Source: Candidatus Saccharimonadales bacterium (GTDB taxonomy: Bacteria > Patescibacteriota > Saccharimonadia > UBA4664 > SCTI01). Taken from it: 64,000 bases of DNA. Each line of letters starts with the position of its first letter. Position 1 is the first letter of the stretch. Under the pieces are notes generated by a model, which saw only the letters and a list, made by a program, of their open reading frames with translations, did not search any database and had not been told where the DNA came from. Location: positions 7 through 64,006 of the forward strand of contig DATIII010000002.1 in the NCBI GenBank assembly GCA_035479795.1. Reading direction: 5' to 3'. The translations under genes were made by a program, and so were the position numbers. Of the stretch, positions 2,434 to 39,567 are shown piece by piece.

Positions 2434-2483
2434 TTGACTTTTATATCTGTCAGGTGTTAAATATCAAAACTGTTCCCTGACAA
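2434..2483 (+). promoter_or_regulatory. Sigma70-like promoter (TTGACT-18-TAAATA) overlapped by an inverted repeat CTGTCAGG...CCTGACAA; candidate operator for the 2492-3189 operon
   Basis: -35 TTGACT at 2434-2439, -10 TAAATA at 2458-2463. Inverted-repeat arms at 2447-2454 and 2476-2483 (7/8 complementary). SD-like aaaggaa precedes ATG 2492. Confidence 0.35.
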
Positions 2484-2491
2484 AGGAAATT

Positions 2492-2878
2492 ATGCCTGCA
2501 ACAAAGCTTCAGCACGGCTGCTACAGCCTAAGAAGCGCTTTCTCCATCATCCAGCACGCCCATGCCGGAGCACCGATGGGCTATATCGAGGCCTTGGAAG
2601 TCGCCGACGCGCCTGACGGCAAGCATCGGATTGTGCTTTGCCACTACAACGGCAACCGCGGCCACTACAGGTTCGTGGAGTTCGAGAGTGTTGAAGACAC
2701 GGTCCGTGAAGTCAATCGGCTGCAATGGGGCTCGCGGGCAGCCACGGACGAGGAGTTCTATGCTTCTCGCGACGGCTTTGTGCGCTTCGTGGCACTGGAA
2801 GAAAACCAGGCCCCGTGGTTCTACGCAGAAGACGTCACCAACGTGACAAGCGACTGCGATTTCGTGATCGAAACATGA
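2492..2878 (+). CDS. Hypothetical protein (128 aa), first gene of a two-gene high-GC operon
   Basis: ATG with upstream aaaggaa and balanced amino-acid composition. Stop TGA overlaps the next ATG (ATGA). No family recognised. Confidence 0.45.
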   Translation: MPATKLQHGCYSLRSAFSIIQHAHAGAPMGYIEALEVADAPDGKHRIVLCHYNGNRGHYRFVEFESVEDTVREVNRLQWGSRAATDEEFYASRDGFVRFVALEENQAPWFYAEDVTNVTSDCDFVIET

Positions 2879-3189
2879 GCGAGTCCAAACGCGCTCACTC
2901 AGGACGGACCATCAGCTTTCTGTTTCGCTCGAGGCGTAAAGAGAACAGCGATCGGGGCATGCTTGAGATCAACCGCAAAACCAGCGTTCTGGTCACAGTC
3001 ACAAATGTCGACGACGAGCAGGCTCGAGTCACGGTCCGAACCACGGTTAATGACCATGGAGGACCACTTGATCAAACCGGCTTTATTGCGCCCAGGACCA
3101 TGCCCAGATCTGAAGTCCACGCTTTTGTCAGCGGGGTGGCTGCACTATCGCTGGCATTTACCGGCCGCGAACCGGAGGTGAAGACTTAG
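2875..3189 (+). CDS. Hypothetical protein (104 aa), translationally coupled to the upstream gene
   Basis: ATG at 2875 overlaps the preceding stop by 4 bp (ATGA). Followed by an intrinsic terminator. No family recognised. Confidence 0.4.
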   Translation: MSESKRAHSGRTISFLFRSRRKENSDRGMLEINRKTSVLVTVTNVDDEQARVTVRTTVNDHGGPLDQTGFIAPRTMPRSEVHAFVSGVAALSLAFTGREPEVKT

Positions 3190-3194
3190 GCGGT

Positions 3195-3221
3195 GGCAGG
3201 GAAACCTGCTGCCGCTTTTTT
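3195..3221 (+). terminator. Intrinsic terminator of the 2492-3189 operon
   Basis: Stem GGCAG(3195-3199)/CTGCC(3209-3213) followed by TTTTTT (3216-3221). Confidence 0.55.
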
Positions 3222-3224
3222 AAT

Positions 3225-3264
3225 GAAAAACTGAGGCGCTCCGGTCGTATATGAACGGAGCGCC
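3225..3264 (-). terminator. Intrinsic terminator of the minus-strand gene 3289-3591
   Basis: Perfect 9-bp stem GGCGCTCCG(3235-3243)/CGGAGCGCC(3256-3264). On the minus strand it is followed by a U-run (complement of GAAAAA at 3225-3230). Confidence 0.55.
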
Positions 3265-3288
3265 TATTCGGCTGGATGCGACCAAGCG

Positions 3289-3591
3289 TCAGACTCGAGA
3301 CCTGGTCGCACCAAGGGCGGCAAGGGGCCCGCCCCAGCGCCGAAGATGATCGCGGGTCCTGTTGTAGAGGCGATCTTCAAGATCGCTGTCGGGTCGCTGC
3401 GACTCCTTTTCGAAGCGTTTGAGCGCCAACCCGGGGTTGTCGCCGGAGCTGACCATCCAGCTCACCGCCTCGAACTCGCCGGTCTCGCGGTCGTTGTGCG
3501 GATGACCGCTGGCTGCCTCGTATCGCTCTTTGGCTTCGGGGTAGGAGTTGCCCCGGCCGCGGAACAGGCCCATCGCACGCTTGAGCATCAA
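3289..3591 (-). CDS. Hypothetical small Ala/Glu-rich acidic protein (100 aa)
   Basis: Strong SD AAGGGAG 5 nt upstream of the ATG. A terminator lies downstream. It is convergent with the 2492-3189 operon. No family recognised. Confidence 0.5.
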   Translation of the reverse strand: MMLKRAMGLFRGRGNSYPEAKERYEAASGHPHNDRETGEFEAVSWMVSSGDNPGLALKRFEKESQRPDSDLEDRLYNRTRDHLRRWGGPLAALGATRSRV

Positions 3592-3652
3592 TGCTCCCTT
3601 CTTTCGGAGTGAACGTGCTTATGCCAAAAATACTCCCGCCACTTATTGGTTG

Positions 3653-4912
3653 TCAACCAATAATAAATAGGCGATTTTCGGCACGAGTTACGGCTGTATA
3701 GAGCCAGCGGCGCCAGTCTTCATCGCTCATATGCTTGTTACGCTCTTCAAACACAATCACCGTATCAGCCGACGATCCTTGGGCTTTGTGAACGGTCAGG
3801 GCATAGGCGAAGTCAAACAAGTCACCTTTAATTTTTTTATCAGGTGTCTTCGGTAATTCTTTAACTGTTTCGCGGGCCCCAAATTGTTCACGCAGTAGCA
3901 AACCTTCATACTCAAAATCATCGATTTTTAAGCCCACCTGCCACCACTTCTCCTCATCGTCAGCCTCGGCCTTGTTTATCCAGCGCACCGAACCAGTCAT
4001 GCCGTTGTACAGCTTGGCCCGACTATTATTGCGTAGACAGACAACATGATCGCCTGACACTGGATCGGCTGACTCAAACCCCATGCGGCCGCGTAGCGAC
4101 TCATTGAGCCGGACTCGAGTGTGGTTGTAGCCACACAACACCAGCCAATCCGGCCGCCACTGCTCGAGCAGCTCATCCATGACCACGCCAATATCATCCG
4201 CCCCACGATCAATCTTAATAACTTCGCTGCCATAGCTGCCAGCCGGAATCTCTCCGGTAGTGCGGGCCAATGTAGCTGCTTGCACGATCCCTGAGCCTGC
4301 AGCCTGTCGATAAACCGCTTCCAGACGCAGCTGCGGATCGGCCATCAGATTAAAGCTAGATCCAACAGGCGGCAGTTGGCCATGATCGCCAACCGCTAGA
4401 ATCGGAATGCCAAATGACAACAGGTCCTTCCAAATATCGGCGGTAACCATACTAGCCTCATCGACGATTATCAGATCAAATTCTAGCTCTTTCTTTTTGC
4501 GCCAACCGGTAATCCGGCCGCCGGAGTCGGTTTCGGTATGGTAGATCAGGCCATGAATGGTCGATATATTGTCAGACTTTTTGGCAATGCGATGGCTCTT
4601 TAGAGTCTTTTCCAGCACCCGCACGGCCTTACCGGTATAGGCACAAAAGGCGACCTTGGCATCCGGATCGTTCTGACGCAGCGCCTGGCGAACATAGGCT
4701 ATCAAGGTAGTTTTGCCCGTACCAGCGTACCCACCCAGCGTTATAAATGGCTCAGATTTGGTTCGGTACCACCGGCCAATTGTCTGGAGGGCTTCAATCT
4801 GTTGTCTTGATAACTCGTAACTCACAAAGCCAAGTGTACCAAACTCCAGCATCCAAAAAATCCAGACATTTTGCGCCAGGGCGTTGGAATTAGTGCTAAT
4901 GCTGAGTATCAA
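3653..4912 (-). CDS. SF1B ATP-dependent DNA helicase, phage T4 Dda/RecD-like (AAA_30 + UvrD_C_2 architecture)
   Basis: Walker A GGYAGTGKTT, Walker B IIVDEASMV, and motifs ILAVGDHGQLPPV and YALTVHKAQGSSADTV...YTAVTRA. Length about 420 aa, like Dda. Start is TTG at 4912 or an internal ATG. Confidence 0.8.
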   Translation of the reverse strand: MILSISTNSNALAQNVWIFWMLEFGTLGFVSYELSRQQIEALQTIGRWYRTKSEPFITLGGYAGTGKTTLIAYVRQALRQNDPDAKVAFCAYTGKAVRVLEKTLKSHRIAKKSDNISTIHGLIYHTETDSGGRITGWRKKKELEFDLIIVDEASMVTADIWKDLLSFGIPILAVGDHGQLPPVGSSFNLMADPQLRLEAVYRQAAGSGIVQAATLARTTGEIPAGSYGSEVIKIDRGADDIGVVMDELLEQWRPDWLVLCGYNHTRVRLNESLRGRMGFESADPVSGDHVVCLRNNSRAKLYNGMTGSVRWINKAEADDEEKWWQVGLKIDDFEYEGLLLREQFGARETVKELPKTPDKKIKGDLFDFAYALTVHKAQGSSADTVIVFEERNKHMSDEDWRRWLYTAVTRAENRLFIIG

Positions 4913-5260: not shown

Positions 5261-6055
5261 ATGAAGATTTATTCCTGGAATGTCAATGGCATTCGCGCCG
5301 TTCATAACAAAGGCTTGTTTTTACCATTTATCGAGCAACATCAGCCCGATATTTTGTGCTTGCAGGAGACCAAGGCAGCCCAACACCAGTCACCAGTAGA
5401 GGTGCCGGGCTATACCGAGCATTGGAATTCGGCCGAGAAACCGGGATATTCCGGCACGGCCATCTTTACCAAGCATCAGCCAGTGGCGGTTATTAATGGC
5501 TTTCCTGAAGATCTAATTGAAAAATACCACCTGACAGGTGATGTTTACGGCGACCCTAATAAAGAGGGACGGGTGGTGGCAGCCGAATTCGACAGCTTCT
5601 ACGTTGTCACCGTCTACACACCCAATGCCAAAGATGATTTATCGCGCATCCCGTTACGCCAAAAATGGGACCCGGCTTTTTTGGAATACTGCTTGCGGCT
5701 GGAAAAAACAAAGCCAGTAATTTTCTGCGGCGACCTTAACGTGGCCCATACCGAAGATGATCTGGCTCGCCCCAAGCCTAATAAAGGCAAGAAGGGTTTT
5801 ACCGAAGAAGAGCGCGGGGGATTCCAGAGCTTTTTAGACCATGGATTCGTTGACACCTTCCGGCTGTTCCACCAGGGCAACGGCCACTATACCTGGTGGA
5901 CTCACTGGGGAAATGCCAGGGCTAACAACGTCGGCTGGCGGATTGACTATTTGTTGGCCTCCAAAGCTCTGAAAGGCAAGATCGCCAAGGCCGAAATCCA
6001 TGCCGATGTCATGGGCTCCGACCATTGCCCAATCTCTCTGACACTTGAGGGCTAA
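5261..6055 (+). CDS. xth: Exodeoxyribonuclease III (AP endonuclease, EEP family)
   Basis: Motifs MKIYSWNVNGIRA, LCLQETK, the CGDLNVAH catalytic region, and C-terminal SDHCPI. Confidence 0.9.
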   Translation: MKIYSWNVNGIRAVHNKGLFLPFIEQHQPDILCLQETKAAQHQSPVEVPGYTEHWNSAEKPGYSGTAIFTKHQPVAVINGFPEDLIEKYHLTGDVYGDPNKEGRVVAAEFDSFYVVTVYTPNAKDDLSRIPLRQKWDPAFLEYCLRLEKTKPVIFCGDLNVAHTEDDLARPKPNKGKKGFTEEERGGFQSFLDHGFVDTFRLFHQGNGHYTWWTHWGNARANNVGWRIDYLLASKALKGKIAKAEIHADVMGSDHCPISLTLEG

Positions 6056-6907
6056 GTGAATTTCTTAAAGCAGGCGGAAGAGCCGCTTTTCCCGGACATC
6101 CTCTGGAATCGACCACTCGTCAAAAATCGGGGAGGCCGCCTGTTGGCTCTCGGTGGTCACTCACGCGGTTTTGCGGCCATCCAGGCGGTTTTCCAGTTGG
6201 CCGAAGCCGCCGGGATCGGCGAGTGCTTGATTGGTATTCCCGACAGTCTGGCCAAGTTAGTGGGTGATGCCCCCGAAATCATGGGCTTACCGGCCAGCCC
6301 ATCAGGATCCCTGGGCAAGGCGGCACTGGGCGAAGTTCTCCATACGGTGGCCGATTGCGATGGTCTACTAGTGGGTCTGGATTTAACCAACAATTCTGAA
6401 ACAGCCGTTTTAGTCGAATCCGTTCTGCAGAAGGCCGAAAAGCCAATCATGATGACCGAGGAAGCCCTGGATACTTTGCCTGGTTCGGCCCAGGTTATCA
6501 CTGAGAATGCAGAGGCTGTTTTGATTGGTAGTATGAATGCCATTATTGCCGTTGCCAATCGAAACAAGTTGGCCCTGCAACTTCGACCAGAGAAACAGCT
6601 AATTGGCCGGATTGAAGCCGTCCAGCAAATCGCAGACGCAGCTAAATGCGCTCTGGTAATAATTGGACGCGAGATTATTGTCTGTGCTGATGGCCAAACC
6701 AGCATCACGCCCCAGCGGGGTGATGCGTCGGACCATCCGGCCGTGCAAGCAGTGTTTGCTCCATTCTGGTTGCAAAATAAATCTAAACGCTTCGAAGCTC
6801 TGACCACGGCTGCCTTCGTTTTAAGCAAGTCACTACCCGCCGATCAAGATCTGACCTACGGCCAGATCGCGGGGAGTATTCGCACGGCCCTGCAGCATTT
6901 CAGTTAA
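6056..6907 (+). CDS. YjeF C-terminal-like / carbohydrate-kinase-fold protein (possible NAD(P)HX dehydratase-like, divergent)
   Basis: Spacing of GG....A...A..AA.G motifs, LLVGLDL, and DAL...P resembles Nnr2/YjeF_C. The canonical C-terminal GxGDxLxG is absent. Confidence 0.35.
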   Translation: MNFLKQAEEPLFPDILWNRPLVKNRGGRLLALGGHSRGFAAIQAVFQLAEAAGIGECLIGIPDSLAKLVGDAPEIMGLPASPSGSLGKAALGEVLHTVADCDGLLVGLDLTNNSETAVLVESVLQKAEKPIMMTEEALDTLPGSAQVITENAEAVLIGSMNAIIAVANRNKLALQLRPEKQLIGRIEAVQQIADAAKCALVIIGREIIVCADGQTSITPQRGDASDHPAVQAVFAPFWLQNKSKRFEALTTAAFVLSKSLPADQDLTYGQIAGSIRTALQHFS

Positions 6908-6940: not shown

Positions 6941-7960
6941 ATGCTTACCGCCAAGTCGGAAAGTCGTGGAGTTCGCAGCATGGATGGCCTTCGTCGATCG
7001 CGGCCGCTACTGCAGCCTGCCCAGTCTCTGGCAGGCCGACCGATCACTCTAGCTGGCACACCGCCACAAGAGCCAATTGAGCCAGCTGCTGTTTTGGCCA
7101 CGACCAACATTGTCGTACCTCGCCGTAATTTAAAGCCATACATCTTAACCGCTGCCTTTAGCGCGGCTGTGCTTTCGGTAACGCCAATTTACAATTACCT
7201 TCAGCAACCCAACGTGGCCTTTGATCAACTGGTTGTCAAAACCATTAACATCGTCCACCCCCAGCCTATAGTGACTGTCGAGTGGGCAAAAATTGATTCA
7301 AGTCTTCCAGCTCTAATTAACTCATCCTCTGGCCTAAAAATAGGGGTATCGGTTATTGATCTTTCAACTGGCAAGCAAAGCAGTTATGGCGAGACCGGGG
7401 CCTTTACTGGTGCCAGCACCACCAAGGTTGTAACCGCCATCGCCTTCTTGCAGATGGTGGAACAAGGGAAAGTCAGCCTATCTGAGAAGCTCGGGAGTAG
7501 TCCAGCAGATTACCAGCTACGCCAGATGATCCAACGCAGCAATAATGATTCATGGGCGCTCCTGAACGCGCGAGTGGGTACGGCCAGCCTACAAAAGCTG
7601 GCGCCAAGTTATGGGGCCAATTCTTATAAGTACATCGGCAATAAGATTTCCGCCGCCGATGATGCAACCATGCTTGCCAGACTATATCAGGGCAAGTTAC
7701 TCAATGCCGACCACACGCAGCTGCTGCTTTCGTACATGCAGAACACCAACAATGAGCAATTAATTGCCGGATCTGATTTGCCATCTGGCGCCACCGTTTA
7801 CCATAAATACGGCCAGCTTGACGAGAACCTGCATGACACCTCGATAATTAAAATTGACGGCCGGCCGCTTATCCTTTCCATCTACACCGCGGGAAGCGGG
7901 GACTATACCACGCGGACCAATCTCATACACCAAATTACCGATTTAGTCATAGCCAAATAG
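6941..7960 (+). CDS. Class A beta-lactamase-like serine hydrolase (penicillin-binding fold)
   Basis: SxxK as STTK, SxN as SNND, and a KTG-like KYG motif. N-terminal hydrophobic segment. Confidence 0.55.
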   Translation: MLTAKSESRGVRSMDGLRRSRPLLQPAQSLAGRPITLAGTPPQEPIEPAAVLATTNIVVPRRNLKPYILTAAFSAAVLSVTPIYNYLQQPNVAFDQLVVKTINIVHPQPIVTVEWAKIDSSLPALINSSSGLKIGVSVIDLSTGKQSSYGETGAFTGASTTKVVTAIAFLQMVEQGKVSLSEKLGSSPADYQLRQMIQRSNNDSWALLNARVGTASLQKLAPSYGANSYKYIGNKISAADDATMLARLYQGKLLNADHTQLLLSYMQNTNNEQLIAGSDLPSGATVYHKYGQLDENLHDTSIIKIDGRPLILSIYTAGSGDYTTRTNLIHQITDLVIAK

Positions 7961-7964
7961 TCCG

Positions 7965-8495
7965 ATGCCATCAGAAACCCCAGCCGATTTGCCCACCCAA
8001 GCAAACCAACTAGTAAGTAAAAGCACTGACACTTTCAAGATCGAAATAGTCCAATCAATAATTGCAAGGCGGAGGAACAGTGCTCGATGGGCCGTAGGGA
8101 TAGTTTTGGTGGTATTGTTTGGTTCCACTTATTTTGATAAACACTACGATGCCGAGGCGTTAATCATTGCGGGTTCCATTTTTGTTCCGTGGTTTACAAC
8201 GCTTTATTTCGTCAACGCCGCAAACTGCCTGCAGCCTAGGACATATTATCGGCATTGGAACAAGATTGTGTACTATTCTCTGGCCAAGTTGGCAGTATTT
8301 TTTAATATCATTGATACCACTGGTGATGCGAAAGGAATCTTCAACCCTTGGCACGGCTTAATGGATTCCACCGTGTCTTCTAGACCGACCTTATTAACGG
8401 ACATGGCAATTTCTGCCGGCACTGGCTACAAAATTCAAAGAAGCCTGAAGCCCGCTGAATATATCGAAGCATATTTCAAACAGCAGCTTGGGTGA
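7965..8495 (+). CDS. Hypothetical membrane protein
   Basis: 176-aa ORF with 3-4 predicted transmembrane segments. No family recognised. Confidence 0.35.
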   Translation: MPSETPADLPTQANQLVSKSTDTFKIEIVQSIIARRRNSARWAVGIVLVVLFGSTYFDKHYDAEALIIAGSIFVPWFTTLYFVNAANCLQPRTYYRHWNKIVYYSLAKLAVFFNIIDTTGDAKGIFNPWHGLMDSTVSSRPTLLTDMAISAGTGYKIQRSLKPAEYIEAYFKQQLG

Positions 8496-8559
8496 CTGCC
8501 ACCCCCTCCAGCTTTCGTTTCTCGGCCGATGGGCGGTAGAAAGCTGACTAAATAATTGC

Positions 8560-8646
8560 TGGTACCGCCGGTCGGGCTCGAACCGACATGAGGTTGCCCT
8601 CACGGGATTTTGAGTCCCGCGTGTCTACCAATTCCACCACGGCGGC
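8560..8646 (-). tRNA. tRNA-Leu (anticodon CAA), CCA encoded
   Basis: Reverse-complement folds as a cloverleaf: acceptor GCCGCCG/CGGCGGU, D-arm with GGAATTGGTAG, anticodon loop CUCAAAA, long variable arm, T-loop GGTTCGAGCCC, 3' ACCA. Confidence 0.85.
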
Positions 8647-8732
8647 GTGCTTCTTGAAACCCCTATTGTTTGGTTCCAGAACCTAAAAAGATTATCATAA
8701 AACAACACGGATATGAAAGATAAACCTAGCCC

Positions 8733-14425: not shown

Positions 14426-15556
14426 ATGCAGTGTCCTAGCTGCGGCAAGACTGGATTCGTCACAATTGGAACTAAGCGCTACTGCAGCAACTGCGGTTGC
14501 TTGCTGTCGGGGGTTGCCACCCCGAGCTTGTCTGATATCAAAGTCGGCCCCAAGACCCCACTAGCTCCGGCGCCAAAAACAGCTTCGGAAATGCACGGCG
14601 CCCAAATTGGGCCCATTAAGACTAGCGGTGTACTCGATCTTCGCCAAGCAAAACCTAAGCCCGCTCCGCAACCAATTTCCGTTTTGCCCCCGGCCCTGGA
14701 AAAGCCCACCGAACCCGTCGCAGCGCCTCAACCGAAAGCCGTAGCACCACCTGCACCTGCACCTGCACCTGCACCTGCACCTGCACCTGCACCTAAAGTG
14801 TCGGCGCCGATAGCCTCGCCCACAAGCTCGATCCTGCCACCGCCTTCTACTAGCCCTCAGACCCAATTATCAGCCGATACTTCTCCGCGCAGTCCAATGT
14901 TCCGCAAATTCAATCCGCATCCGGCAGTCGCCAAGCCAGTCGGCCAGCCCTCAGTCGCTAAAGACATGCCAGCCCAAGTAGCAGCCCAAATAGACTCCAT
15001 GGGTGCCCTGGCCCAGTCCGCGCCTGAGCCTACTGCTGCAGAGCCGGTGAAACCAAAATCTCCAGAACTTGAGAAAGCCATTAATGCTGCTCGTCCAGGC
15101 CAGACCTTCACCCCTGCCCGCGCCGCCGCCGGTGTGGCAATTGTCGCCATCCTAGCCGGCTTTGTCTGGTTGCAGAATTCCCCCAAACTAGCCTTCCATG
15201 ATGCCGCCGCCAAGGCTGGAATTGAGGCCAGTCTACCAACCTACGTGCCTTCCAGCTATCGTCAAGCCGGGCCAGTAGAGGCGGGAAATGGTCAGGTGAG
15301 CCTACACTTTACCACTCCTGGCTCGGATGAAAAGTTAAATATAGTACAGAAGAAAACCGACTGGGACCCAGACTCATTGCGAGAAAATTATGTGGCTAAA
15401 CAGAGCGATAATTTTCTAGCTGTCCAAGGTCAGGGCTTAACGATTTATGTCTTCAACAATCAAGCCAACTGGGTCAACCACGGGATCTGGTATTCCATTA
15501 GTGGGACTTCAAAACTGTCACGCGAACAAGTCCTCAAAATCGCCTACGGCCTGTAA
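14426..15556 (+). CDS. Zinc-ribbon (CxxC-N13-CxxC), Pro/Ala-rich, single-pass membrane protein with a C-terminal extracytoplasmic domain
   Basis: N-terminal MQCPSCGK...CSNCGC. A long PA-rich linker including (AP)n. A transmembrane segment at about residue 230. Confidence 0.5.
   Translation: MQCPSCGKTGFVTIGTKRYCSNCGCLLSGVATPSLSDIKVGPKTPLAPAPKTASEMHGAQIGPIKTSGVLDLRQAKPKPAPQPISVLPPALEKPTEPVAAPQPKAVAPPAPAPAPAPAPAPAPKVSAPIASPTSSILPPPSTSPQTQLSADTSPRSPMFRKFNPHPAVAKPVGQPSVAKDMPAQVAAQIDSMGALAQSAPEPTAAEPVKPKSPELEKAINAARPGQTFTPARAAAGVAIVAILAGFVWLQNSPKLAFHDAAAKAGIEASLPTYVPSSYRQAGPVEAGNGQVSLHFTTPGSDEKLNIVQKKTDWDPDSLRENYVAKQSDNFLAVQGQGLTIYVFNNQANWVNHGIWYSISGTSKLSREQVLKIAYGL
14745..14788 (+). repeat. Hexanucleotide tandem repeat (ACCTGC)n, about 7 units, encoding (PA)n
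   Basis: Six perfect CTGCAC units at 14751-14786, plus partial flanking units. Confidence 0.9.
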
Positions 15557-19216: not shown

Positions 19217-19546
19217 ATGACAGACAATAAACCCGAGGAGAAGGTGGAGACGAGGAAGCTGCGCGTCATGCGCGCTGTTTTCAATAAGGATGCACCTCCG
19301 CCTCGCGGCTGGAGAGGACTGTTCCACCGGGATGGAGATCTCATCAAGGCCCTGTGCGGCCAGTCGCTGCCGAATGACCTCACCAAGGCCACACCCTGCC
19401 AAATGGGCCTGGCCCGGCTGATCTGGGACTGGCTGGCAGCCAACACTGCCCTCGAAATCCAGGAAACGACAGCCAGCCGTATCAAAGTCGTCCGTCGGGC
19501 AGCTCAAGGCGACTCCGGGGCACTAGCCCTACTTGGCCTGGCCTAG
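19217..19546 (+). CDS. Hypothetical protein (109 aa) in a high-GC patch
   Basis: SD GAGGAG 5 nt upstream of the ATG. Overlapping minus-strand ORFs look like antisense artefacts. Confidence 0.35.
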   Translation: MTDNKPEEKVETRKLRVMRAVFNKDAPPPRGWRGLFHRDGDLIKALCGQSLPNDLTKATPCQMGLARLIWDWLAANTALEIQETTASRIKVVRRAAQGDSGALALLGLA

Positions 19547-20101: not shown

Positions 20102-20683
20102 TTAGTAACAAGTATTGGGCCAGGGGCTGCAGCCCCGAGCCGCATAGGTCTCATGCGCCTTGGCGTCCTGTACCTCGGCTGGTGCGTCGGAGGCATGACG
20201 GTAGCCACCATAGCCGCCCCAGGTACCATCGTTGTACTGGTAGGCGCCGTAGTAACCGTTGCCGGTGTTAGTGGCGTAGTTGCCACCCGATTCCCGCGCG
20301 CGAATGCGGGCAAAGATGTCTCCGCTCGGCGCAGCTGTACTGACACGGTGCGAAGCAGCCTGGTGGTGCGTTACAGGCGCCGTAGCCGCTACCGGGGCCA
20401 CGGAACCATAGCCGTCAGGCAGGGGGCGATCGGTGGTTGGTTTGCTTGGAATGGTTAATTCTTGGTCGACGCTAATTACGTCGGGATTTGATAGTTGGGC
20501 GTTGGCATTCCAGATTGGACGCCAATTTTCTAACTGGTTGTCGGCCGCAATCGAAGACAGTGATTCTCCGGTAGCGACCTTATGTTTTTCTGGCTGGTCG
20601 GTTGATCCGCTAGCAGCATGAGCACTGCCGGAGGCCATACCAATTCCCGCCGCTATTGCTAGCAGCATAATGATTTTACGCAA
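20102..20683 (-). CDS. Secreted LysM-domain protein with a C-terminal Rpf-like transglycosylase-like domain
   Basis: Signal peptide. LysM GESLSSIAADNQL...ISVDQELTIP. C-terminus ESGGNYATNTGNGYYGAYQYNDGTWGGYGG...AEVQDAKAH...CSPWPNTC matches the Rpf/transglycosylase-like pattern. TTG start with SD AAGGAG. Confidence 0.7.
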   Translation of the reverse strand: MRKIIMLLAIAAGIGMASGSAHAASGSTDQPEKHKVATGESLSSIAADNQLENWRPIWNANAQLSNPDVISVDQELTIPSKPTTDRPLPDGYGSVAPVAATAPVTHHQAASHRVSTAAPSGDIFARIRARESGGNYATNTGNGYYGAYQYNDGTWGGYGGYRHASDAPAEVQDAKAHETYAARGCSPWPNTCY

Positions 20684-20925: not shown

Positions 20926-21873
20926 TTACTGGCCCTGGGCCAAGCGCAACCGCTTCACGTTGGCGCTGGCCTCGGCGGCCTGGGTAGAGGCCACTTCAGT
21001 CTCGTCGGCCTCGGTCATCCCGACACTGGTGGTGACCACCGGCGGGCCGAGCAAACTAGCCACCACGGCGGCCGGCGCGGTCAGCACCTTGTCATCGAGA
21101 AGTCCCACTCCCTTGTTCAGGGCGCAGGCACTGGCATCGGCCAGGGCCTCCCTGGATACGACGACCTCACCGTAACCAGTTGGCTGCTTGCACTTGAACC
21201 CAACGTCATCGACCCGAATCCCGGCAATTCCACCGATTTCCCGAGCCTTGGTAATGATGCGCTTGTCGAGCAACCCGCGGATCAACTGCCGGTAGGTGAT
21301 CTTGCCGGCGTCCGTCTGGATGACCTGAACGATGCCCTCGTAGAGGTAATCGCTCCAGCTCGACATTTCCAGCTGCTTCTTGGCGACGTCGACCACCTGG
21401 AAGTGGATGACGGGTGTGACCTTAAAGGCCACGCAGTCGCGGGTAACGATCTTGAGCTCTTGGCACTCGTGCTTCTGAGGCCGCATATCGGTGGGGGGCT
21501 GCTTGTGGATAAACGGCAGCTTGAACCACTGGCCGGCGGTCCGGATCATCAGCTGCTGCCGCCGGGCCGGGTCCCAGCCGATCGGGCAAGGCAGAATGAA
21601 CGGGCCGAAGGCGCGCAAGCCATACCGATCCCAGTACCACGTCCGCAGGTGGAGCGGCATGCCGAAACGGGTCATGACGGACTCGTGGCCGTAGGGCATG
21701 CGAAAACAGCTCTTCTTCCCATCGGCATCGTCCTTGGCCTTCTTGGCCGCAATGCCGAGAATTCCGCCGGTAGTGACACTACCCCCGACAAGTGAAGGAA
21801 CAATTGTTGCGAGACTGGGCATAAGCCCCCTCCATGGGACTCGAGATTTACAGGTAAAACGTACTCCTCGCAC
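20926..21873 (-). CDS. SPFH/band-7 (stomatin/prohibitin-like) domain membrane protein with an Ala/Val-rich C-terminal tail
   Basis: F.MPYGHESVMTRFG, WFKLPFI and QELKIVTRDCVAFKVTPVIHFQVVD match the SPFH N-terminal signature. The likely start is the internal Met MPSLATIV. Confidence 0.55.
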   Translation of the reverse strand: MRGVRFTCKSRVPWRGLMPSLATIVPSLVGGSVTTGGILGIAAKKAKDDADGKKSCFRMPYGHESVMTRFGMPLHLRTWYWDRYGLRAFGPFILPCPIGWDPARRQQLMIRTAGQWFKLPFIHKQPPTDMRPQKHECQELKIVTRDCVAFKVTPVIHFQVVDVAKKQLEMSSWSDYLYEGIVQVIQTDAGKITYRQLIRGLLDKRIITKAREIGGIAGIRVDDVGFKCKQPTGYGEVVVSREALADASACALNKGVGLLDDKVLTAPAAVVASLLGPPVVTTSVGMTEADETEVASTQAAEASANVKRLRLAQGQ

Positions 21874-32203: not shown

Positions 32204-32227
32204 AAAAAGCCCCACATAATGTGGGGC
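32204..32227 (-). terminator. Intrinsic terminator downstream of minus-strand gene 32269-32766
   Basis: 8-bp stem GCCCCACA/TGTGGGGC with loop TAA. On the minus strand it is followed by a U-run (A-run at 32204-32208 on plus). Confidence 0.55.
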
Positions 32228-32268
32228 GGGTGGGCGGCCACCGGTTTGCGACCGCCCCTGAACTGGTA

Positions 32269-32766
32269 CTACGAGCCGGGAGCCTCCTTGACGCTAGCAG
32301 GAACATCCTGAGGACTCTGGAAGGCCGGACCGTGAGTCGCCGCCCACCAGGTGCATCCACGAGGCCAGGGCTTGGGCCGCTTGCCCTCACGAACCTGGGT
32401 AACCAGGCGAGAGCACTTCTTGGCCGAAAGCCGGGTGATGGTTTCGCTGCCGCTGACGGCCGCGATCCGGCAATGCCTTGGCAGGCTACCCACGTCAAAC
32501 CCCGTTGCGGAGCTACCCAGAGGCTTTGCCTTCTTGCATGAGTCAAGGAAGGGGATGTCCCTCCTGAACTCAGCCACCTTGCTGCGCTGAACGCAGTAGA
32601 TCGTGTCATCGACCTGGATCGAGACACAGCCAGAGGCCGTTGTGGGTGCCTGTGCCGGCTGAGCTGCCGTCTGCCGATCAGAAGAACCACAGGCGGAGAC
32701 GAGGAGAGCGAGGACCAACCCCGCCATAATCGTCGTGAAACGAATGATGCGGGCGAAGTGGCCCAT
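32269..32766 (-). CDS. Cys-rich putative lipoprotein (165 aa), high-GC
   Basis: Signal peptide with lipobox LVSAC and 8 Cys residues. No family recognised. Consensus promoter upstream. Confidence 0.5.
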   Translation of the reverse strand: MGHFARIIRFTTIMAGLVLALLVSACGSSDRQTAAQPAQAPTTASGCVSIQVDDTIYCVQRSKVAEFRRDIPFLDSCKKAKPLGSSATGFDVGSLPRHCRIAAVSGSETITRLSAKKCSRLVTQVREGKRPKPWPRGCTWWAATHGPAFQSPQDVPASVKEAPGS

Positions 32767-32883
32767 GATTACCGTCCAAGGGTGAGTAGTGTTTTCAAAT
32801 TCCTGGACCAGGATGCGATTTGCTCGCTTCCTGGTTGAGAACCTGACCCTACAAAGTGCGTCTCACCTCTGAGATTGTTAACT

Positions 32884-32912
32884 ATAATAGCATAGTGGTT
32901 ACGTTTTGTCAA
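32884..32912 (-). promoter_or_regulatory. Consensus sigma70-type promoter cassette (TTGACA-17-TGcTATTAT) for 32269-32766
   Basis: Minus-strand -35 TTGACA (plus 32907-32912), 17-bp spacer, -10 TATTAT (plus 32884-32889) with TG at -15/-14. Confidence 0.6.
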
Positions 32913-32936
32913 GAAGATCCAATTTTCTAGACATGG

Positions 32937-32960
32937 AAAAGCCGGCCGCGAACGACCGGC
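32937..32960 (-). terminator. Intrinsic terminator downstream of minus-strand gene 32980-33528
   Basis: Stem GCCGG(32941-32945)/CCGGC(32956-32960). On the minus strand it is followed by UUUU. Confidence 0.5.
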
Positions 32961-32979
32961 TAAACCAGAACTTCAACTT

Positions 32980-33528
32980 CTACTTCTTGAGATGGCAACC
33001 TTTGGGCCGTACCACCTTGCCGACGTATGGCTTGTTCTTAGGAGTTGGGCGCATGTACTCGCGCCACTCCGAACACGTCAACTTCACGATGCGAACCGGG
33101 CCTTTCTTCATCGGATACGGGTTCGCCTTCTGCCGTAGCTCCGGGCAGTCCTCGTAGAGGTGGGGCGGGTCCGCCTCGGGGTTCTTCGGCACTGGAGATT
33201 CTTGCTCCTGCTCGTAGGCCTTGCAGTCGACCTTGGGCCGCTGCTTCGGGATCTTGCAGTAGTCGAACGGCTCACCATCGGGGCTGGTCTGACCATTGGG
33301 GTCTTCGGCCCCCAAGGGGCTGTTCGACTCGTAGCCGGGCTGCCTGCTGTAATACTGTTGATCCTTAACCCACCACTTGGGCGGATCGCACTTCTGGACG
33401 AAGGCCTGCGGCTCCGAGTAGTCGGGAAAATCCCGGTCGTACTGGATCTGCTGGCCAATGACCATGCCGACCAGGAGAGCAACAAGACCGCAAACGACAG
33501 CAGCCCAAACGACGTCGGACTTCTTCAT
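32980..33528 (-). CDS. Membrane-anchored Cys/Pro-rich secreted protein (182 aa), high-GC
   Basis: N-terminal transmembrane anchor. SD GGGAGGG. 8 Cys residues, Pro/Lys-rich. No family recognised. Confidence 0.5.
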   Translation of the reverse strand: MKKSDVVWAAVVCGLVALLVGMVIGQQIQYDRDFPDYSEPQAFVQKCDPPKWWVKDQQYYSRQPGYESNSPLGAEDPNGQTSPDGEPFDYCKIPKQRPKVDCKAYEQEQESPVPKNPEADPPHLYEDCPELRQKANPYPMKKGPVRIVKLTCSEWREYMRPTPKNKPYVGKVVRPKGCHLKK

Positions 33529-33591
33529 GACACCCTCCCGGGTAGTAGACAGATTGTGTATGTTCTGGACCGGTAAAAACCGATAAGTACT

Positions 33592-33620
33592 ATAATAGCA
33601 TTATTCTTATGTTTTGTCAA
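33592..33620 (-). promoter_or_regulatory. Consensus promoter cassette (TTGACA-17-TGcTATTAT) for 32980-33528
   Basis: Minus-strand -35 (plus 33615-33620), 17-bp spacer, -10 (plus 33592-33597). Near-identical to the cassette at 32884-32912. Confidence 0.6.
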
Positions 33621-34022
33621 TATATATGCAGGATAGGACTAGACTTAAATATCCTTCGACGTAGTTTGCCCTGAGCGAAGCCGAAGGGCTGAAGCCGAAG
33701 GGCTCAGGATGACAAATCCGACAAGTAGTCTAGATATAAATAAAACCCCATGCAAGGGACAGGGTGGCCTGCCACGGGCATCGGGTTTTATTGCACCCTC
33801 CAATACCTGCCCAGGGGCATTTTCGCGATCTGGCAAATGTGAGGAGATCGGGTATTCGAGGGACTGAACTACCTGCTGGCGAATCTAAAGGAGGGTGCAT
33901 TCAGACTCCCCTAGCAGGCAGGTCAGTAGGGTTTACTGGTTGAAAGTACCACCTCAAAAAGGTATGATTGGGATAGTAACATTAAATGTTATAAATGTCA
34001 ATCGAATTTATGTAAACTGACT

Positions 34023-34874
34023 GTGCAACCCTCTAAAATTACTTATGCTAATTCCCAATATCCAGATGCGCTTCGTGAGATAGCGGCGGCCCCGAAGCAG
34101 CTTTACGTACTGGGTGACTTGAAGGCCGGGCCGTTGGTCGCGGTTGTCGGGTCACGCCGCCCTACAGATTATGGCAAACAGGTGACCCATCAGTTGGCAA
34201 CCGACTTGGCCCGAGCCGGGGTGGGGATTGTATCTGGGCTGGCCCTGGGTATTGATACGATAGCTCATCAAGCGGCTGTGGAGGCCGGGGGTTATACCAT
34301 TGCCGTCCAAGGTAATGGGCTTGATAAGGTCTACCCTCATAGTAATCGCGGATTAGGCATTAAGATTCTTGAATCAGGCGGAGCCATTATTAGCGAATAC
34401 GACCCGGGTATGCCGGCTTTAAAACAGAACTTTCCAGCCCGCAACCGCATTATTTCGGGCTTAAGTTTGGCGGTGATTGTGACCGAAGCGGATGCCTCCA
34501 GCGGCTCGCTGATTACTGCCAATTTTGCGGTTCAGCAGAACCGGCAGGTTTTAGCAGTACCGGGCAACATTACCAGCCAGCGCTCGGCCGGACCAAATAA
34601 CCTGCTTAAACTCGGCGCCATACCAGTCACCAGCGCCAGCGATGTGCTGGCCGCGCTCGACCTGGAATCCCGGGCCTTAAAGGCTCGGCCAGCCATTGCA
34701 CAGAGTGCTGAGGAGGCCAAGTTACTCGAACTTATGGATACTGGCACCACCCAAAGCCAGCAACTGATTGAAGGCGCTGATATGACGGCAAGTCAGTTTG
34801 CCTACGTGATTAGCTTGATGGAGATCACCGGCAAGGTGCGCAACCTAGGCGCCGGTATTTGGGTGCGCCGCTAG
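34023..34874 (+). CDS. dprA: DNA processing protein A (DprA/Smf)
   Basis: Rossmann-like core VAVVGSRRPTDYG...GVGIVSGLALGIDTIAHQAAV. GTG start. Confidence 0.85.
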   Translation: MQPSKITYANSQYPDALREIAAAPKQLYVLGDLKAGPLVAVVGSRRPTDYGKQVTHQLATDLARAGVGIVSGLALGIDTIAHQAAVEAGGYTIAVQGNGLDKVYPHSNRGLGIKILESGGAIISEYDPGMPALKQNFPARNRIISGLSLAVIVTEADASSGSLITANFAVQQNRQVLAVPGNITSQRSAGPNNLLKLGAIPVTSASDVLAALDLESRALKARPAIAQSAEEAKLLELMDTGTTQSQQLIEGADMTASQFAYVISLMEITGKVRNLGAGIWVRR

Positions 34875-35882: not shown

Positions 35883-35950
35883 GCTTATATCCTAGCTGTC
35901 ATCTCGAGCCCAGTCGAGAGATCTATTTGAAAGATGTCTCGAATACCTCG

Positions 35951-35994
35951 ACATGACAATAAAAAAGCCCCGGAGGGACCCCGCACCTGGTGAG
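35951..35994 (-). terminator. GC-rich hairpin plus U-run downstream of gene 36021-36533
   Basis: 10-bp stem CCCCGCACCT(35969-35978)/AGGTGCGGGG(35985-35994). The U-run is 12 nt beyond the stem on the minus strand. Confidence 0.4.
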
Positions 35995-36020
35995 AGGTGC
36001 GGGGTATCGCGGGGGTGTGG

Positions 36021-36533
36021 CTAGAGGACCTCACCTTCGAGGTATTTCCAGCCGGGGCGCCGCTCCTTGCAGGCCTGAATCGGCCGTAAGGCTGCGTCGG
36101 TGCGGAGGTGGATGACATGGTCGACCACCCTGCAGAAGACCCACCAGTCGGACTCCTCCTTGAGTCCCGATGCACCACCGGTGTAGTCCCGGTAGGTGCC
36201 AGCGCCAGCCCAGGGGAAGTCCCCAGGCTCGACCAGATCGGGTCGGAGCGCCGCCTCGGAGGATGGGAGGCCGGTGCGAAGAACGAACCTGAGCTTGTGG
36301 TCGACGTTGTCGGTCAGACCCTCCTCCGCGCTGATTCGGGTCTCGTCGCCAACGCTCACGAAGTAGAGGCCGGTGGAGCAGGGATCCGAAGGATCCGGCA
36401 CCCTTGCCGGGTCCAAGATCACCACAGAGACTTCCACATCGTCGCCGTACTTCTGTTGAAGGTTCGGGACCATCACTTGATGGAACCAAGTATCCAGCTG
36501 CCGCTGGATGAGGAGGCCGAATCGCTCGGACAC
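36021..36533 (-). CDS. Hypothetical protein (170 aa), high-GC, cytoplasmic
   Basis: GTG start with SD AAAGGAA. Chosen over two overlapping Arg/Gly-rich frames. No family recognised. Confidence 0.45.
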   Translation of the reverse strand: MSERFGLLIQRQLDTWFHQVMVPNLQQKYGDDVEVSVVILDPARVPDPSDPCSTGLYFVSVGDETRISAEEGLTDNVDHKLRFVLRTGLPSSEAALRPDLVEPGDFPWAGAGTYRDYTGGASGLKEESDWWVFCRVVDHVIHLRTDAALRPIQACKERRPGWKYLEGEVL

Positions 36534-36580
36534 GGGTTTCCTTTCGTAGTAGGGGCTACCTCAAAAAAGGCATGAGTACT

Positions 36581-36609
36581 AGAATAGCATAAGAAGCTTA
36601 TTTTGTCAA
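36581..36609 (-). promoter_or_regulatory. Consensus promoter cassette (TTGACA-17-TGcTATTCT) for 36021-36533
   Basis: Minus-strand -35 (plus 36604-36609), 17-bp spacer, -10 (plus 36581-36586). Confidence 0.55.
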
Positions 36610-37686: not shown

Positions 37687-38232
37687 TTACAACAGGCCTA
37701 ATTTACGGGCACAGGCAGGCCACGGGCGCCAGCCGCGAACGGCTTGGTCGGCGTGGGCCTTAGTATCCTGGACCTCGGCCGGGGCTAAGTCCGGACGGGC
37801 ATAGCCACCGTAGTTGTTCCAGGTACCCAGACTGTACTGGTAGGCGCCGAAGTAACCGTTACCCGAGTTACGGGTGTAGGTACTACCGGACTCACACAGA
37901 CGAATCTGGTAAAAGGCATCATCGCCAGCCGGGGCAACTACCTTAGTGGTAGCAACCTTAACAGCGGCGCGGCGGGCGGCCAATTTGGCAGCCTTAGTAG
38001 CCTCTTGCTTGGCCTTCAGCGGGGCAATCACGTCGGTATCGAAGTTAGGCTTCGGAGCGACGACAACTGTCACCGGTTGGACCTGTAGGGTATCGAGTTT
38101 GATCTCGTAAGGTGCGGGGGTCTCAACACTGGCCTGAGCCGTTGCTGAGGCGGTTATCAGACCGGTAAACGGGCTGATGACCTGGGCCGTTAGTGACAGA
38201 TGTGCCACCAACGTATGTAGATAGTTACGCAT
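37687..38232 (-). CDS. Secreted Rpf-like (resuscitation-promoting-factor / transglycosylase-like domain) protein
   Basis: C-terminus CESGSTYTRNSGNGYFGAYQYSLGTWNNYGG...AEVQDTKAH...WRPWPACA matches the Rpf domain pattern (CESGGNW..NTGNGYYGGLQ...TW...GG...WP.C). Start taken at ATG 38232 because the ORF-track ATG lies inside the promoter spacer. Signal peptide follows. Confidence 0.65.
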   Translation of the reverse strand: MRNYLHTLVAHLSLTAQVISPFTGLITASATAQASVETPAPYEIKLDTLQVQPVTVVVAPKPNFDTDVIAPLKAKQEATKAAKLAARRAAVKVATTKVVAPAGDDAFYQIRLCESGSTYTRNSGNGYFGAYQYSLGTWNNYGGYARPDLAPAEVQDTKAHADQAVRGWRPWPACARKLGLL

Positions 38233-38290
38233 AGCGCAGTTCGTAAAACGAGCTGTGATACGTCCTTTCTGGTTAGTGGTGCTGCCCAAT

Positions 38291-38320
38291 AAAAAGGACC
38301 TCGCATTGAGGTCTTTTATC
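38291..38320 (-). terminator. Intrinsic-terminator-like hairpin + U5 in the 5' leader of the Rpf-like gene
   Basis: 7-bp stem GGACCTC/GAGGTCT. On the minus strand it is followed by UUUUUAUU. It lies between the -10 at 38332-38337 and the start codon at 38232. Confidence 0.5.
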
Positions 38321-38331
38321 GAACGCGGAAT

Positions 38332-38360
38332 ATAATAAACCATAAGTGGTATTTTGTCAA
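38332..38360 (-). promoter_or_regulatory. Consensus promoter cassette (TTGACA-17-TATTAT) for the Rpf-like gene
   Basis: Minus-strand -35 (plus 38355-38360), 17-bp spacer, -10 (plus 38332-38337). Confidence 0.55.
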
Positions 38361-38461
38361 TACTTAACAGGTGGCTAGGTTTTCCCTACATCTGTAGAAT
38401 CAACTTAAGCATTCTCTCAGGTCATAGGGCTAGGCTATGATCAGTAAAAGGAATTACACCT

Positions 38462-38974
38462 ATGAAAGTTCGTAAATCATTAATTGTGGCCTGTGCGGCG
38501 GGTAGCCTTGGTCTGGCCAGTGTAGGCGCACTGGCTGCCACTAGCACAAACTCTTCCGGCAGTTTAGTGGATGATGTAACCAACCATTTCCATCTAAACA
38601 AATCAGAGGTCCAGCAGGTATTTGATAATCATCGAAAAACCGAGAAGGCCAATCACGAGCAGAAATATGAAGATAGGCTAAACCAGGCCGTCAAGGATGG
38701 CAAGCTGACATCGGATCAGAAAGATAAAATTCTGGCCAAGCACAAAGAGATGATCAGCTTTATGGAGTCACTAAAGGATAAGACGCCACAAGAGCGCCAC
38801 GACGCTATGAAGACTAAGATGGACGAGCTAAAAACCTGGGAGAAAGATAATAACATCCCAGTGGGTTACCTGGGCGGACCGGGAATGGGGCATCATGGTT
38901 TCGGACACGGGCCGAAAGGTGATGGACCAGGTGAGGGGATAGGCATGCGCATGATGGACGGCGAGCCTCGATAA
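38462..38974 (+). CDS. Secreted LTxxQ-motif (Spy/CpxP-like) protein with a His/Gly-rich C-terminal tail
   Basis: Signal peptide. Helical, charged core with LTSDQKDKI. C-terminus GGPGMGHHGFGHGPKGDGPGEG suggests metal binding. Confidence 0.4.
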   Translation: MKVRKSLIVACAAGSLGLASVGALAATSTNSSGSLVDDVTNHFHLNKSEVQQVFDNHRKTEKANHEQKYEDRLNQAVKDGKLTSDQKDKILAKHKEMISFMESLKDKTPQERHDAMKTKMDELKTWEKDNNIPVGYLGGPGMGHHGFGHGPKGDGPGEGIGMRMMDGEPR

Positions 38975-38998
38975 ATATAATAAATAAAGACTTGTCTC

Positions 38999-39028
38999 GG
39001 AGGCCGGCGATATTGCCGGCCTCCTTTT
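38999..39028 (+). terminator. Intrinsic terminator (10-bp GC stem + TTTT), usable by both convergent genes
   Basis: GGAGGCCGGC(38999-39008)/GCCGGCCTCC(39015-39024), then TTTTGG. A/T-rich on the other side as well. Confidence 0.6.
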
Positions 39029-39035
39029 GGTATGA

Positions 39036-39533
39036 CTAGCTGCCCCAGCAGGTCTGGCAACCACCCCAGTCACGCCTGGTTAGCCCATCGCTACGAAAAG
39101 CAGATACGGCCGGAGGCGATACCGCACTCTCAGGCGGCGGCACAGCCCACATCTCCGGATCGAACTTGATGCCGTGGTCCTGCATGAACGCGACGGTCGA
39201 CGTCACGTCGCGAGCCGTTATCTGCGCAGACGGGTCATCGTTAGGCTCATGGTGAATGAACCGTCGAGCCACCTGGTGGAAGAACACGGTGTAGTTGGTG
39301 GTGTAAAGCAAAAAGGCGTGCCAGCCGATGTCAATCTTCCCGGATGGTGTAAAGGCCTCGTCGGGATGATCGCCACACAGCTTGAGGAAGCCGAGAGTGG
39401 CGTCCATGATCCGTTCGGCCTCCCTGACGCTGGTTCCGTGATCTTTACAGATCCGACCGGTCAGTCGCAGCCAGAGGATGGAGTCGATCAGGTCCCGATA
39501 AAGGAACTGTCGAGGTTCGGCGCGAGTGGGCAT
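39036..39533 (-). CDS. Hypothetical protein (165 aa), high-GC
   Basis: Contains IDIGWHAFLLYTTNYTVFFHQVARRFIHHEP, which has a weak resemblance to the glycine-rich-domain / DUF1399-like WH...L..Y...HH.P pattern. Consensus promoter upstream. Confidence 0.45.
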   Translation of the reverse strand: MPTRAEPRQFLYRDLIDSILWLRLTGRICKDHGTSVREAERIMDATLGFLKLCGDHPDEAFTPSGKIDIGWHAFLLYTTNYTVFFHQVARRFIHHEPNDDPSAQITARDVTSTVAFMQDHGIKFDPEMWAVPPPESAVSPPAVSAFRSDGLTRRDWGGCQTCWGS

Positions 39534-39567
39534 AACAACTCACTTTCGTCGTTTGATGCGCGACAAA

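Follow-up and report, generated by a model that had tools for sequence, protein, structure and literature searches.

GC-rich patches and the genes they carry

The window analyzed here is a 64,000-nt stretch of the metagenome-assembled genome of a Candidatus Saccharimonadales bacterium (GenBank assembly GCA_035479795.1, contig DATIII010000002.1), where short GC-rich patches interrupt DNA of ordinary composition. A first-pass annotation of the window had listed eight patches, numbered here 1 to 8 in order of position (about 2480–3600, 19150–19560, 20060–20700, 20880–21900, 32200–33560, 35940–36560, 37690–38350 and 39030–39540). The patches are real. Pooled, they measure 58.9% GC versus 50.8% in the DNA outside them (51.6% in the whole window), and single values, from patch 1 to patch 8, are 58.8, 60.1, 56.5, 60.6, 58.4, 62.6, 55.8 and 58.9%. 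No segment of equal length outside the patches matches the GC content of patches 1, 4, 5 and 6, and 0.5–2.9% of such segments are as GC-rich as patches 2, 3, 7 and 8. Open reading frame (ORF) edges fall within ~70 nt of the patch edges, and the 120-nt flanks of the patches are mostly 33–56% GC. The list of patches is sound but incomplete, as the stretch 14418–15339, which corresponds to the top 500-nt GC segment outside the listed patches, reaches 61% GC.

Genes were called with a codon model, and frames were checked by GC content at first, second and third codon positions (GC1, GC2, GC3). In each patch, the frame annotated at NCBI has GC3 > GC1 > GC2, as expected of coding DNA. The long antisense ORFs rich in Arg, Gly and Leu, already suspected to be spurious, do exist, but are mirror images of the coding frames. 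For example, the ORF 20884–21795 on the plus strand (GC1 0.80) lies opposite to the gene 20926–21873 on the minus strand (GC3 0.78).

Patches are set among core genes, which include mreB, gltX, a DUF3048 gene, two-component systems, der, pth, dprA, dus, the genes for Ku and LigD, topA, a PBP gene and the dcw cluster. Core genes had been described as sitting near 50% GC. This is only roughly true: gltX measures 50.4%, topA 52.2% and mreB 54.3%.

Patch genes have been sorted into two classes. Class A includes eight small, mostly orphan genes, located in six patches (2492–2878, 3289–3591, 19217–19546, 20926–21873, 32269–32766, 32980–33528, 36021–36533 and 39036–39533), which make up 11% of the 37-kb interval. 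Class B includes the genes for two secreted proteins similar to resuscitation-promoting factors (Rpf), found in patches 3 and 7. The initial description of the gene content, as orphans, Rpf-like proteins and an SPFH protein, holds for the orphans and for the two Rpf-like proteins, both recognized by Pfam; the SPFH label reflects a sub-threshold Pfam match.

Composition of class A genes

The 53 genes located outside the patches, taken as reference, have a GC3 of 0.545 ± 0.048. In class A genes GC3 ranges from 0.69 to 0.79 (z = 3.1–5.1). Codons ending in G or C are raised for all 18 degenerate amino acids, with C preferred to T and G to A. Pooled GC1/GC2/GC3 values are 0.62/0.47/0.75 in class A versus 0.585/0.41/0.55 in the core. 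Tetranucleotide profiles were normalized for mononucleotide content; Markov-normalized profiles are too noisy at 4 kb. The class A profile correlates with that of the other genes at r = 0.37, whereas random core samples of equal size correlate at 0.87 ± 0.02, with a minimum of 0.80. The uniform GC3 or tetranucleotide signature which would have spoken against a mosaic origin is thus not seen in six patches, and is seen in the two Rpf-like genes (GC3 0.58 and 0.60).

Two class A genes reside in patch 1. The gene p1a (2492..2878, plus strand; 128 aa, GC3 0.71, z = 3.4) has relatives in four clusters defined at 50% identity, p1c (3289..3591, minus strand; 100 aa, GC3 0.78, z = 4.9) in one cluster only, at 53% identity. 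A possible second small ORF of the same patch (2959..3189, plus strand) features a weak coding signal (GC3 0.58), matches no family, and ends at a strong terminator (3188–3217; 13-bp stem followed by a T-run). Patch 2 hosts p2 (19217..19546, plus strand), an orphan of 109 aa with a GC3 of 0.69–0.70 (z = 3.1). Patch 5 hosts two minus-strand orphans, p5a (32269..32766; GC3 0.71–0.72, z = 3.5), a putative lipoprotein of 165 aa (152 aa according to NCBI) carrying a lipobox-like LVSAC motif, and p5b (32980..33528; 182 aa, GC3 0.79, z = 5.1), which features an N-terminal membrane anchor and is rich in Cys, Pro, Lys and Glu. The genes p6 (36021..36533, minus strand; 170 aa, GC3 0.79, z = 5.1) and p8 (39036..39533, minus strand; 165 aa, GC3 0.71, z = 3.4) belong to larger families, and are described below.

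The SPFH-like gene of patch 4 (20926..21873, minus strand; GC3 0.78, z = 4.9) encodes a predicted membrane protein of 315 aa, or 298 aa if the NCBI start is used. The Band_7 domain (PF01145) is matched at 20 bits, below the cut-off of 23.6, stomatin matches in PDB are not significant (E = 0.6–0.8), and the AlphaFold2 (AF2) model is unusable (predicted local distance difference test, pLDDT, 30). Two other clusters of the family are known.

Apart from this sub-threshold Band_7 match, class A proteins have no match in Pfam, PHROG and NCBIfam. A phage origin was explored through PHROGs and discarded, no class A protein being matched. No paralogy was found among patch genes at blastp E<0.1. The Rfam scan for non-coding RNA identified only two tRNAs (8560 and 25685), both outside the patches.

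Patch 1 is adjoined by a gene for a Dda-like/RecD-like helicase (3653–4912; PHROG 325, E = 2e-84) and preceded by genes encoding a nuclease (1422–1988) and an AGOG-like glycosylase (182–1333), the latter with a borderline high GC3 (0.68). No synteny was seen between the first 5 kb of the window and the relatives examined. A non-coding stretch of 380 nt (33640–34020), located between patch 5 and dprA, hosts a hairpin with 25-nt arms (33739–33792), and has no Rfam match.

Variable gaps between conserved genes

Class A genes were compared to the corresponding positions, or slots, in related loci. Locus L090 (58% GC) covers positions 14–31 kb of the window, and contains 13 orthologues at 55–90% identity. 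Here p2 is absent, the DPBB and FKBP genes being 25 nt apart. Locus L105 (54% GC) covers positions 28–41 kb. The gaps between the Pth and DprA genes and between the membrane gene and the Dus gene measure 363 and 56 nt, respectively, and p5a, p5b and p6 are therefore absent in L105; p8 is also missing from its slot. In L105 the gap between the Dus and Ku genes hosts eight other small ORFs, and one of them encodes a p1a homologue (P0082, 54–58% identical), which thus occupies a slot other than that of p1a. In loci L001 (51.5% GC) and L002 (57% GC), the genes of patches 5, 6 and 8 are missing as well. An ABC transporter is found in L001 between Pth and DprA, and a 386-aa gene lies in the same slot in L002. 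Two unrelated orphans of L001 (9508–9909 and 15312–15824) have a GC3 of 0.67 and 0.87, versus 0.44–0.59 in the core. They reside in the slot between the membrane and Dus genes and at a site upstream of topA, which are equivalent to slots occupied by class A genes in the window. Overall, p2, p5a, p5b, p6 and p8 are absent from the orthologous slots among these four relatives; the SPFH-like gene is the exception, being syntenic in L090–L092, in a context found in three separate sequencing runs. The cargo between conserved genes differs from lineage to lineage, and the gaps are therefore hypervariable.

Non-conserved genes deviating in GC3 by more than 0.1 (|d| > 0.1) were surveyed in 33 Patescibacteria loci. 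Deviations are high in 23 genes and low in 36, and the idea that GC-rich orphans are a rule of the clade was hence abandoned. Mid-GC genomes tend to host high-GC3 outliers, GC-rich genomes low-GC3 outliers, which is what is expected from exchange among lineages ranging from <30% to >60% GC.

The window also encodes a Ku and LigD pair (39829–43062; the latter with ligase, primase-polymerase and phosphoesterase parts) of normal GC3. L001 and L002 lack the pair in this slot; L105 and L080 have it. DprA (34023–34874) and an ATPase resembling type IV secretion system (T4SS) coupling proteins (49034–51736) are encoded as well. Ku-LigD, DprA and the ATPase plausibly make up a toolkit for DNA uptake and integration.

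The p6 and p8 families

The p6 gene belongs to a conserved unnamed family of 60 members, all metagenomic, which share conserved motifs. No match was found with models of Pfam, NCBIfam and PHROG, nor were p6 sequences found in IMG/VR. The AF2 model of p6 (pLDDT 88) retrieved Ybr137w, HbpS, NahX and EfgA in Foldseek searches, with template modeling (TM) scores of ~0.5, E = 5e-4 and probability near 1. The predicted fold thus resembles that of GlcG/HbpS/Ybr137w (DUF336-type) proteins, on which the p6 model can be superposed; p6 differs from them in having no profile match, and the TM-score is moderate.

Homologues of p6 (39–56% identical) occupy different sites: they adjoin gltX in L077, a kinase/regulator pair and Ku-LigD in L080, and still other genes in L079 and L093. 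Their GC3 exceeds the local value in L077 (0.67 versus ~0.39), L079 (0.75 versus ~0.52) and L080 (0.80 versus ~0.62), and is equal to it in L093 (0.63 versus 0.63) and L095 (0.90 versus ~0.90). Relatives 33–40% identical reside in contigs of 72–73% GC, where they match the local composition as well. Tetranucleotide typing of these contigs gave no discrimination.

HbpS partners with a sensor kinase in Streptomyces. Some p6 homologues adjoin, or lie near, histidine-kinase/response-regulator pairs (L080 10001–12454, L077 10001–15029), an arrangement which recalls HbpS-SenS-SenR. L079, which carries another homologue, hosts an AIRS-like gene and an AIRC+SAICAR_synt fusion (12637–19715) with a GC3 of 0.75–0.78, while glycosyltransferase genes in the same contig are at ~0.5. 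These genes, of the purine-synthesis type, may represent a metabolic module acquired by a Saccharimonadales-like genome.

The p8 family is larger. With p8 as query, 1070 clusters were retrieved at E<=0.001; among the 150 listed, almost every one matches the p8 segment. Three homologues (P0085, P0083, P0080) come already annotated as PF27765, a model for which the copy of Pfam used here gives no match even with these proteins. From its 50–56% identity to homologues, p8 is probably a UCP032817-like (PF27765) protein. In L106 and L107, homologues at this level of identity reside beside a methyltransferase or the DnaE gene, and their composition is that of the DNA around them. In L104 the homologue has a GC3 of 0.82, and is inserted in a ribosomal-protein operon averaging 0.47. 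In this genome (47.5% GC) the p8 homologue, a methyltransferase gene (GC3 0.36) and a PIG-L gene are found between rpsJ and rplC (7121–9529), and the p8 and methyltransferase pair recurs in L106.

By tblastn, p8 matches the Streptomyces phage Kromp and plasmids of seven Streptomyces, a Nonomuraea and a Rhodococcus at 27–40% identity. Members of the family were also found in 12 IMG/VR contigs, 10 of which are 65–70% GC. A viral contig of 44% GC, L120, carries at its extreme end (6001–6240) a p8 fragment whose GC3 is 0.95, and which stems from a very recent transfer or from a chimeric assembly.

Since p6 in L093 and L095 and p8 in L106 and L107 match the composition of the DNA around them, neither family is subject to an intrinsic GC pressure.

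Rpf-like genes and amino acid composition

Both class B genes map on the minus strand. The gene in patch 3 (20102..20683) encodes a protein with LysM and Transglycosylase-like domains, the gene in patch 7 (37687..38343) a second protein with a Transglycosylase-like domain. The PF06737 domain is matched at 64.2 and 58.4 bits, respectively, above the cut-off of 27 bits, and LysM at 32 bits, also above its cut-off. GC3 is at background in both genes (0.578, z = 0.7, and 0.60, z = 1.2). What is raised is GC2, which is 0.56 and 0.50, versus 0.41 in the core. The proteins are rich in Ala, Thr and Pro, and Ala alone accounts for 15.6% of the pooled residues. The gene in patch 3 has a syntenic orthologue in L090 (67% identity); none of the loci examined contains a syntenic relative of the gene in patch 7.

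The GC-rich stretch outside the eight patches behaves in the same way. It falls in a conserved plus-strand gene (14426..15556), which resembles class B genes in having a GC2 of 0.54 and a GC3 of 0.52, and has a syntenic orthologue, 66% identical, in L090. A tandem CACCTG repeat is found within this gene at 14748–14789. The high GC of class B genes and of this gene is due to their richness in Ala, Gly, Pro and Thr, which raises GC2. Neither Rpf-like patch appears to be an acquisition, as denoted by the normal GC3 and high GC2 and, for one of them, by the syntenic orthologue. By virtue of their syntenic orthologues, the Rpf-like gene 20102..20683 and the gene 14426–15556 look vertically inherited. 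Rpf/PF06737 proteins are typical of Actinobacteria. Both class B genes carry the domain, one along with LysM, but their GC excess is no foreign signature, GC3 being at background.

Promoters, terminators and mobility marks

Several class A genes form self-contained units, each provided with a promoter-like site, a terminator-like site or both. Promoter-like sites were identified upstream of p5a (32912–32884), p5b (33620–33592), p6 (36609–36581) and p1c (3656–3627). Hairpin terminators flank p5a (32227–32209), p6 (35982–35964) and p8 (38999–39024, bidirectional); others map at 20886–20921, at the already mentioned 3188–3217, and at 19554–19595, the latter common to p2 and the convergent FKBP gene.

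The promoters of p5a, p5b and p6 share the pattern TTGACA-N14-TGCTATTNTAGT (32881–32912, 33589–33620 and 36578–36609, minus strand). Three matches were found versus 0 expected, none before core genes and none in 120 loci. The shared 18-base pattern was considered as a sign of a common source, and rejected. It is common in IMG/VR viral contigs, and thus corresponds to a generic strong extended -10 promoter.

The Dda-like helicase gene lies next to patch 1, but no recombinase gene was found. A 15-nt inverted repeat around the p6 slot is accounted for by the similar 5' leaders of two divergent flanking genes. Integron gene cassettes were also considered. A cassette is a promoterless ORF with an attC-type repeat and an integrase nearby, and class A genes differ in all three respects: several have a promoter-like site of their own, they share no flanking repeat, and no integrase is present.

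Origin of the mosaic

We favor, with a probability of about 0.65, the view that the mosaic has two unrelated causes, namely the acquisition of class A genes from a GC-richer pool and the amino acid composition of class B proteins. Piecemeal horizontal acquisition, initially proposed for the patches as a whole, stands for six of them because of the atypical GC3 and tetranucleotides, the absence from the slots of relatives and the occurrence of homologues at other sites elsewhere; by composition, it does not apply to the two Rpf-like genes. We infer that the eight class A genes would have been inserted as accessory genes, singly or in pairs, into the variable stretches that separate conserved genes on a Saccharimonadales chromosome of ~51% GC. 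Several of them sit as self-contained units, provided with a sigma-70 promoter close to consensus, a hairpin terminator or both. Class A genes would still bear the codon-position composition of the GC-richer source, which, according to the Muto-Osawa and Lawrence-Ochman regressions, should be roughly 57–63% GC, versus ~51% for the core. This estimate falls in the range of related Saccharimonadales, many of which are 54–62% GC, and below the high-GC carriers. As immediate donors, the most likely candidates are other Patescibacteria/Saccharimonadia, or mobile elements that circulate in these groups.

Compositional islets of acquired DNA, marked by atypical composition and subject to gradual amelioration, were reportedly described by Lawrence and Ochman (J Mol Evol, 1997). 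Class A genes resemble such islets in the odd codon-position GC and oligonucleotides, the absence from slots and the patchy distribution of homologues. They differ in being single genes of 0.3–0.9 kb, not associated with integrases, tRNA targets or direct repeats, and in being GC-richer than the host. Recently acquired genes and ORFans are said to be AT-richer in most bacteria (Daubin and Ochman, 2004). Horizontal gene transfer into Patescibacteria has been found to occur mostly from other Patescibacteria, and to involve both individually transferred genes and islands up to 13% of the genome length (mSystems 2025, PMC12455944). The fraction of the interval occupied by class A genes, and the location of their nearest homologues in Patescibacteria-like contexts, are in keeping with such an exchange. 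Transfers in that study were deduced from similarity between pairs of metagenome-assembled genomes, whereas here they are deduced from composition and synteny, and the donor is unsampled.

Several observations weigh against this explanation. Insertion marks are missing, as neither integrases nor tRNA targets nor flanking repeats were found at the patches. The nearest class A homologues are at most 63% identical, no donor was found, and three genes (p2, p5a, p5b) have no homologue among 1.8 billion cluster representatives. Homologues of p6 are GC3-richer than the host by 0.18–0.28 in four genomes of 44–54% GC. The SPFH-like gene does not fit a recent transfer. Its GC3 is 0.78 in the window and 0.775 in L090, despite core values of 0.545 and 0.67, and in all 13 orthologue pairs between the window and L090, the SPFH-like gene included, the identity of synonymous codons is at the level expected at saturation. 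The gene may have been acquired long ago from a very GC-rich source and be incompletely ameliorated, or have been replaced independently in the same slot, or be under a gene-specific pressure. Finally, class A tetranucleotides correlate with those of GC-rich Saccharimonadales loci at r = 0.34–0.42 (0.66 in one case), while the best match is a Streptomyces plasmid (r = 0.74). This contrast is confounded by the structure of GC3 and by the homology of the Saccharimonadales loci to the core of the window, whose correlation with them is thereby inflated. Preferences among G/C-ending codons fit Saccharimonadales at r = 0.84–0.93 (0.68 and 0.79 for two loci) and Streptomyces at 0.87. Donor typing by tetranucleotides or G/C-ending codons was therefore given up: class A DNA appears as generic high-GC DNA, and Saccharimonadales and Streptomyces are inseparable by codons.

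An alternative explanation starts from Actinobacteria, the only known hosts of cultured Saccharibacteria. The patches could be traces of DNA from a high-GC actinobacterial host, or from its phages or plasmids, imported directly via competence or the T4SS and fixed by Ku-LigD end joining. The window does encode DprA, Ku, LigD and the coupling-protein-like ATPase. Nine of the ten p8 plasmid matches, in addition to phage Kromp, are from Actinobacteria, and the high-GC IMG/VR contigs and the p6 relatives in 72–73% GC contigs point the same way, though the latter contigs are not separable by tetranucleotide typing. Seven Streptomyces plasmids are matched by the GC3-rich ferredoxin gene of L015, whereas the plasmids matched by control genes with normal GC are taxonomically diverse (a rough control, as it includes housekeeping genes, namely SmpB, GatB/YqeY and heliorhodopsin). 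Yet the enrichment of p8 on actinobacterial plasmids and phage is only a hint of the link with Actinobacteria suggested at first, as identity is 27–40% versus 50–56% for the copies in Patescibacteria-like contexts. Class A GC3 is ~0.75 and that of high-GC carriers 0.85–0.95; the preferences for G/C-ending codons (GCC 0.76, ACC 0.72) fit Saccharimonadales at least as well as Streptomyces; tetranucleotides of Deinococcus, Cupriavidus and Sinorhizobium also correlate at r = 0.60–0.62; and the signal is carried by effectively two or three families. Direct derivation from the host is on these grounds improbable, and the link with Actinobacteria via two or three families is a lead rather than a result.

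Slightly less probable still is that class A genes are long-term residents, whose third positions were enriched in GC by selection on expression or mRNA, or by GC-biased gene conversion. The constancy of GC3 in the SPFH-like orthologues, in two genomes of different background and despite saturation, and the excess of GC3 in p6 homologues in four genomes would be explained in this way, and near-consensus extended -10 promoters on three class A genes suggest strong expression (the window has no highly expressed reference genes for a comparison of codon selection). A process of this type does not account for p6 and p8 matching the local composition in other genomes, nor for the foreign tetranucleotide signature, nor for the absence of p2, p5a, p5b, p6 and p8 from the orthologous slots. 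Moreover, the shift is seen in every amino acid and raises codons ending in G as well as those ending in C, which is the behavior of a background composition and not of a set of preferred codons, and non-conserved genes in the 33 loci are not systematically GC3-rich. The variant put forward in the first-pass annotation, a special mutational or selective regime acting on secreted-protein genes, is not supported as far as a mutational regime is concerned: export signals could be read in only 3 of the 8 class A proteins, and the effect seen in the Rpf-like genes is due to amino acid composition. That the patches are artefacts, either assembly chimeras formed with co-occurring GC-rich organisms or spurious ORFs, is very improbable. 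In favor of an artefact, the sequence derives from a metagenome assembly, long ORFs arise in several frames where DNA is GC-rich, and the fragment at the contig end of L120 may be a related case. However, the same proteins are encoded by 2–3 contigs of different source, from NCBI (156 kb) and Logan (162 kb), and the context of the SPFH-like gene recurs across sequencing runs. The chosen frames have the coding pattern and the antisense ORFs mirror them, p6 has a confident model and 60 homologues with conserved motifs, and promoters and terminators coincide with patch edges.

Implications

The probable acquisition of class A genes is ordinary horizontal gene transfer, a further case of a well-known phenomenon. 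About one tenth of the interval would be made of recently gained accessory DNA, of a type that composition-based binning and codon-based gene callers are prone to mishandle. GC content alone over-calls transfer, as two of the eight patches and the stretch at 14426–15556 are amino acid-driven. Saccharimonadales feature hypervariable slots between genes, filled by different small genes in each relative. Two unnamed families, p6 and p8, move among Patescibacteria, and have relatives in high-GC contigs and, for p8, in actinobacterial mobile elements. If the patches were derived from the host, they could help to trace the hosts of soil Saccharibacteria that are still uncultured.

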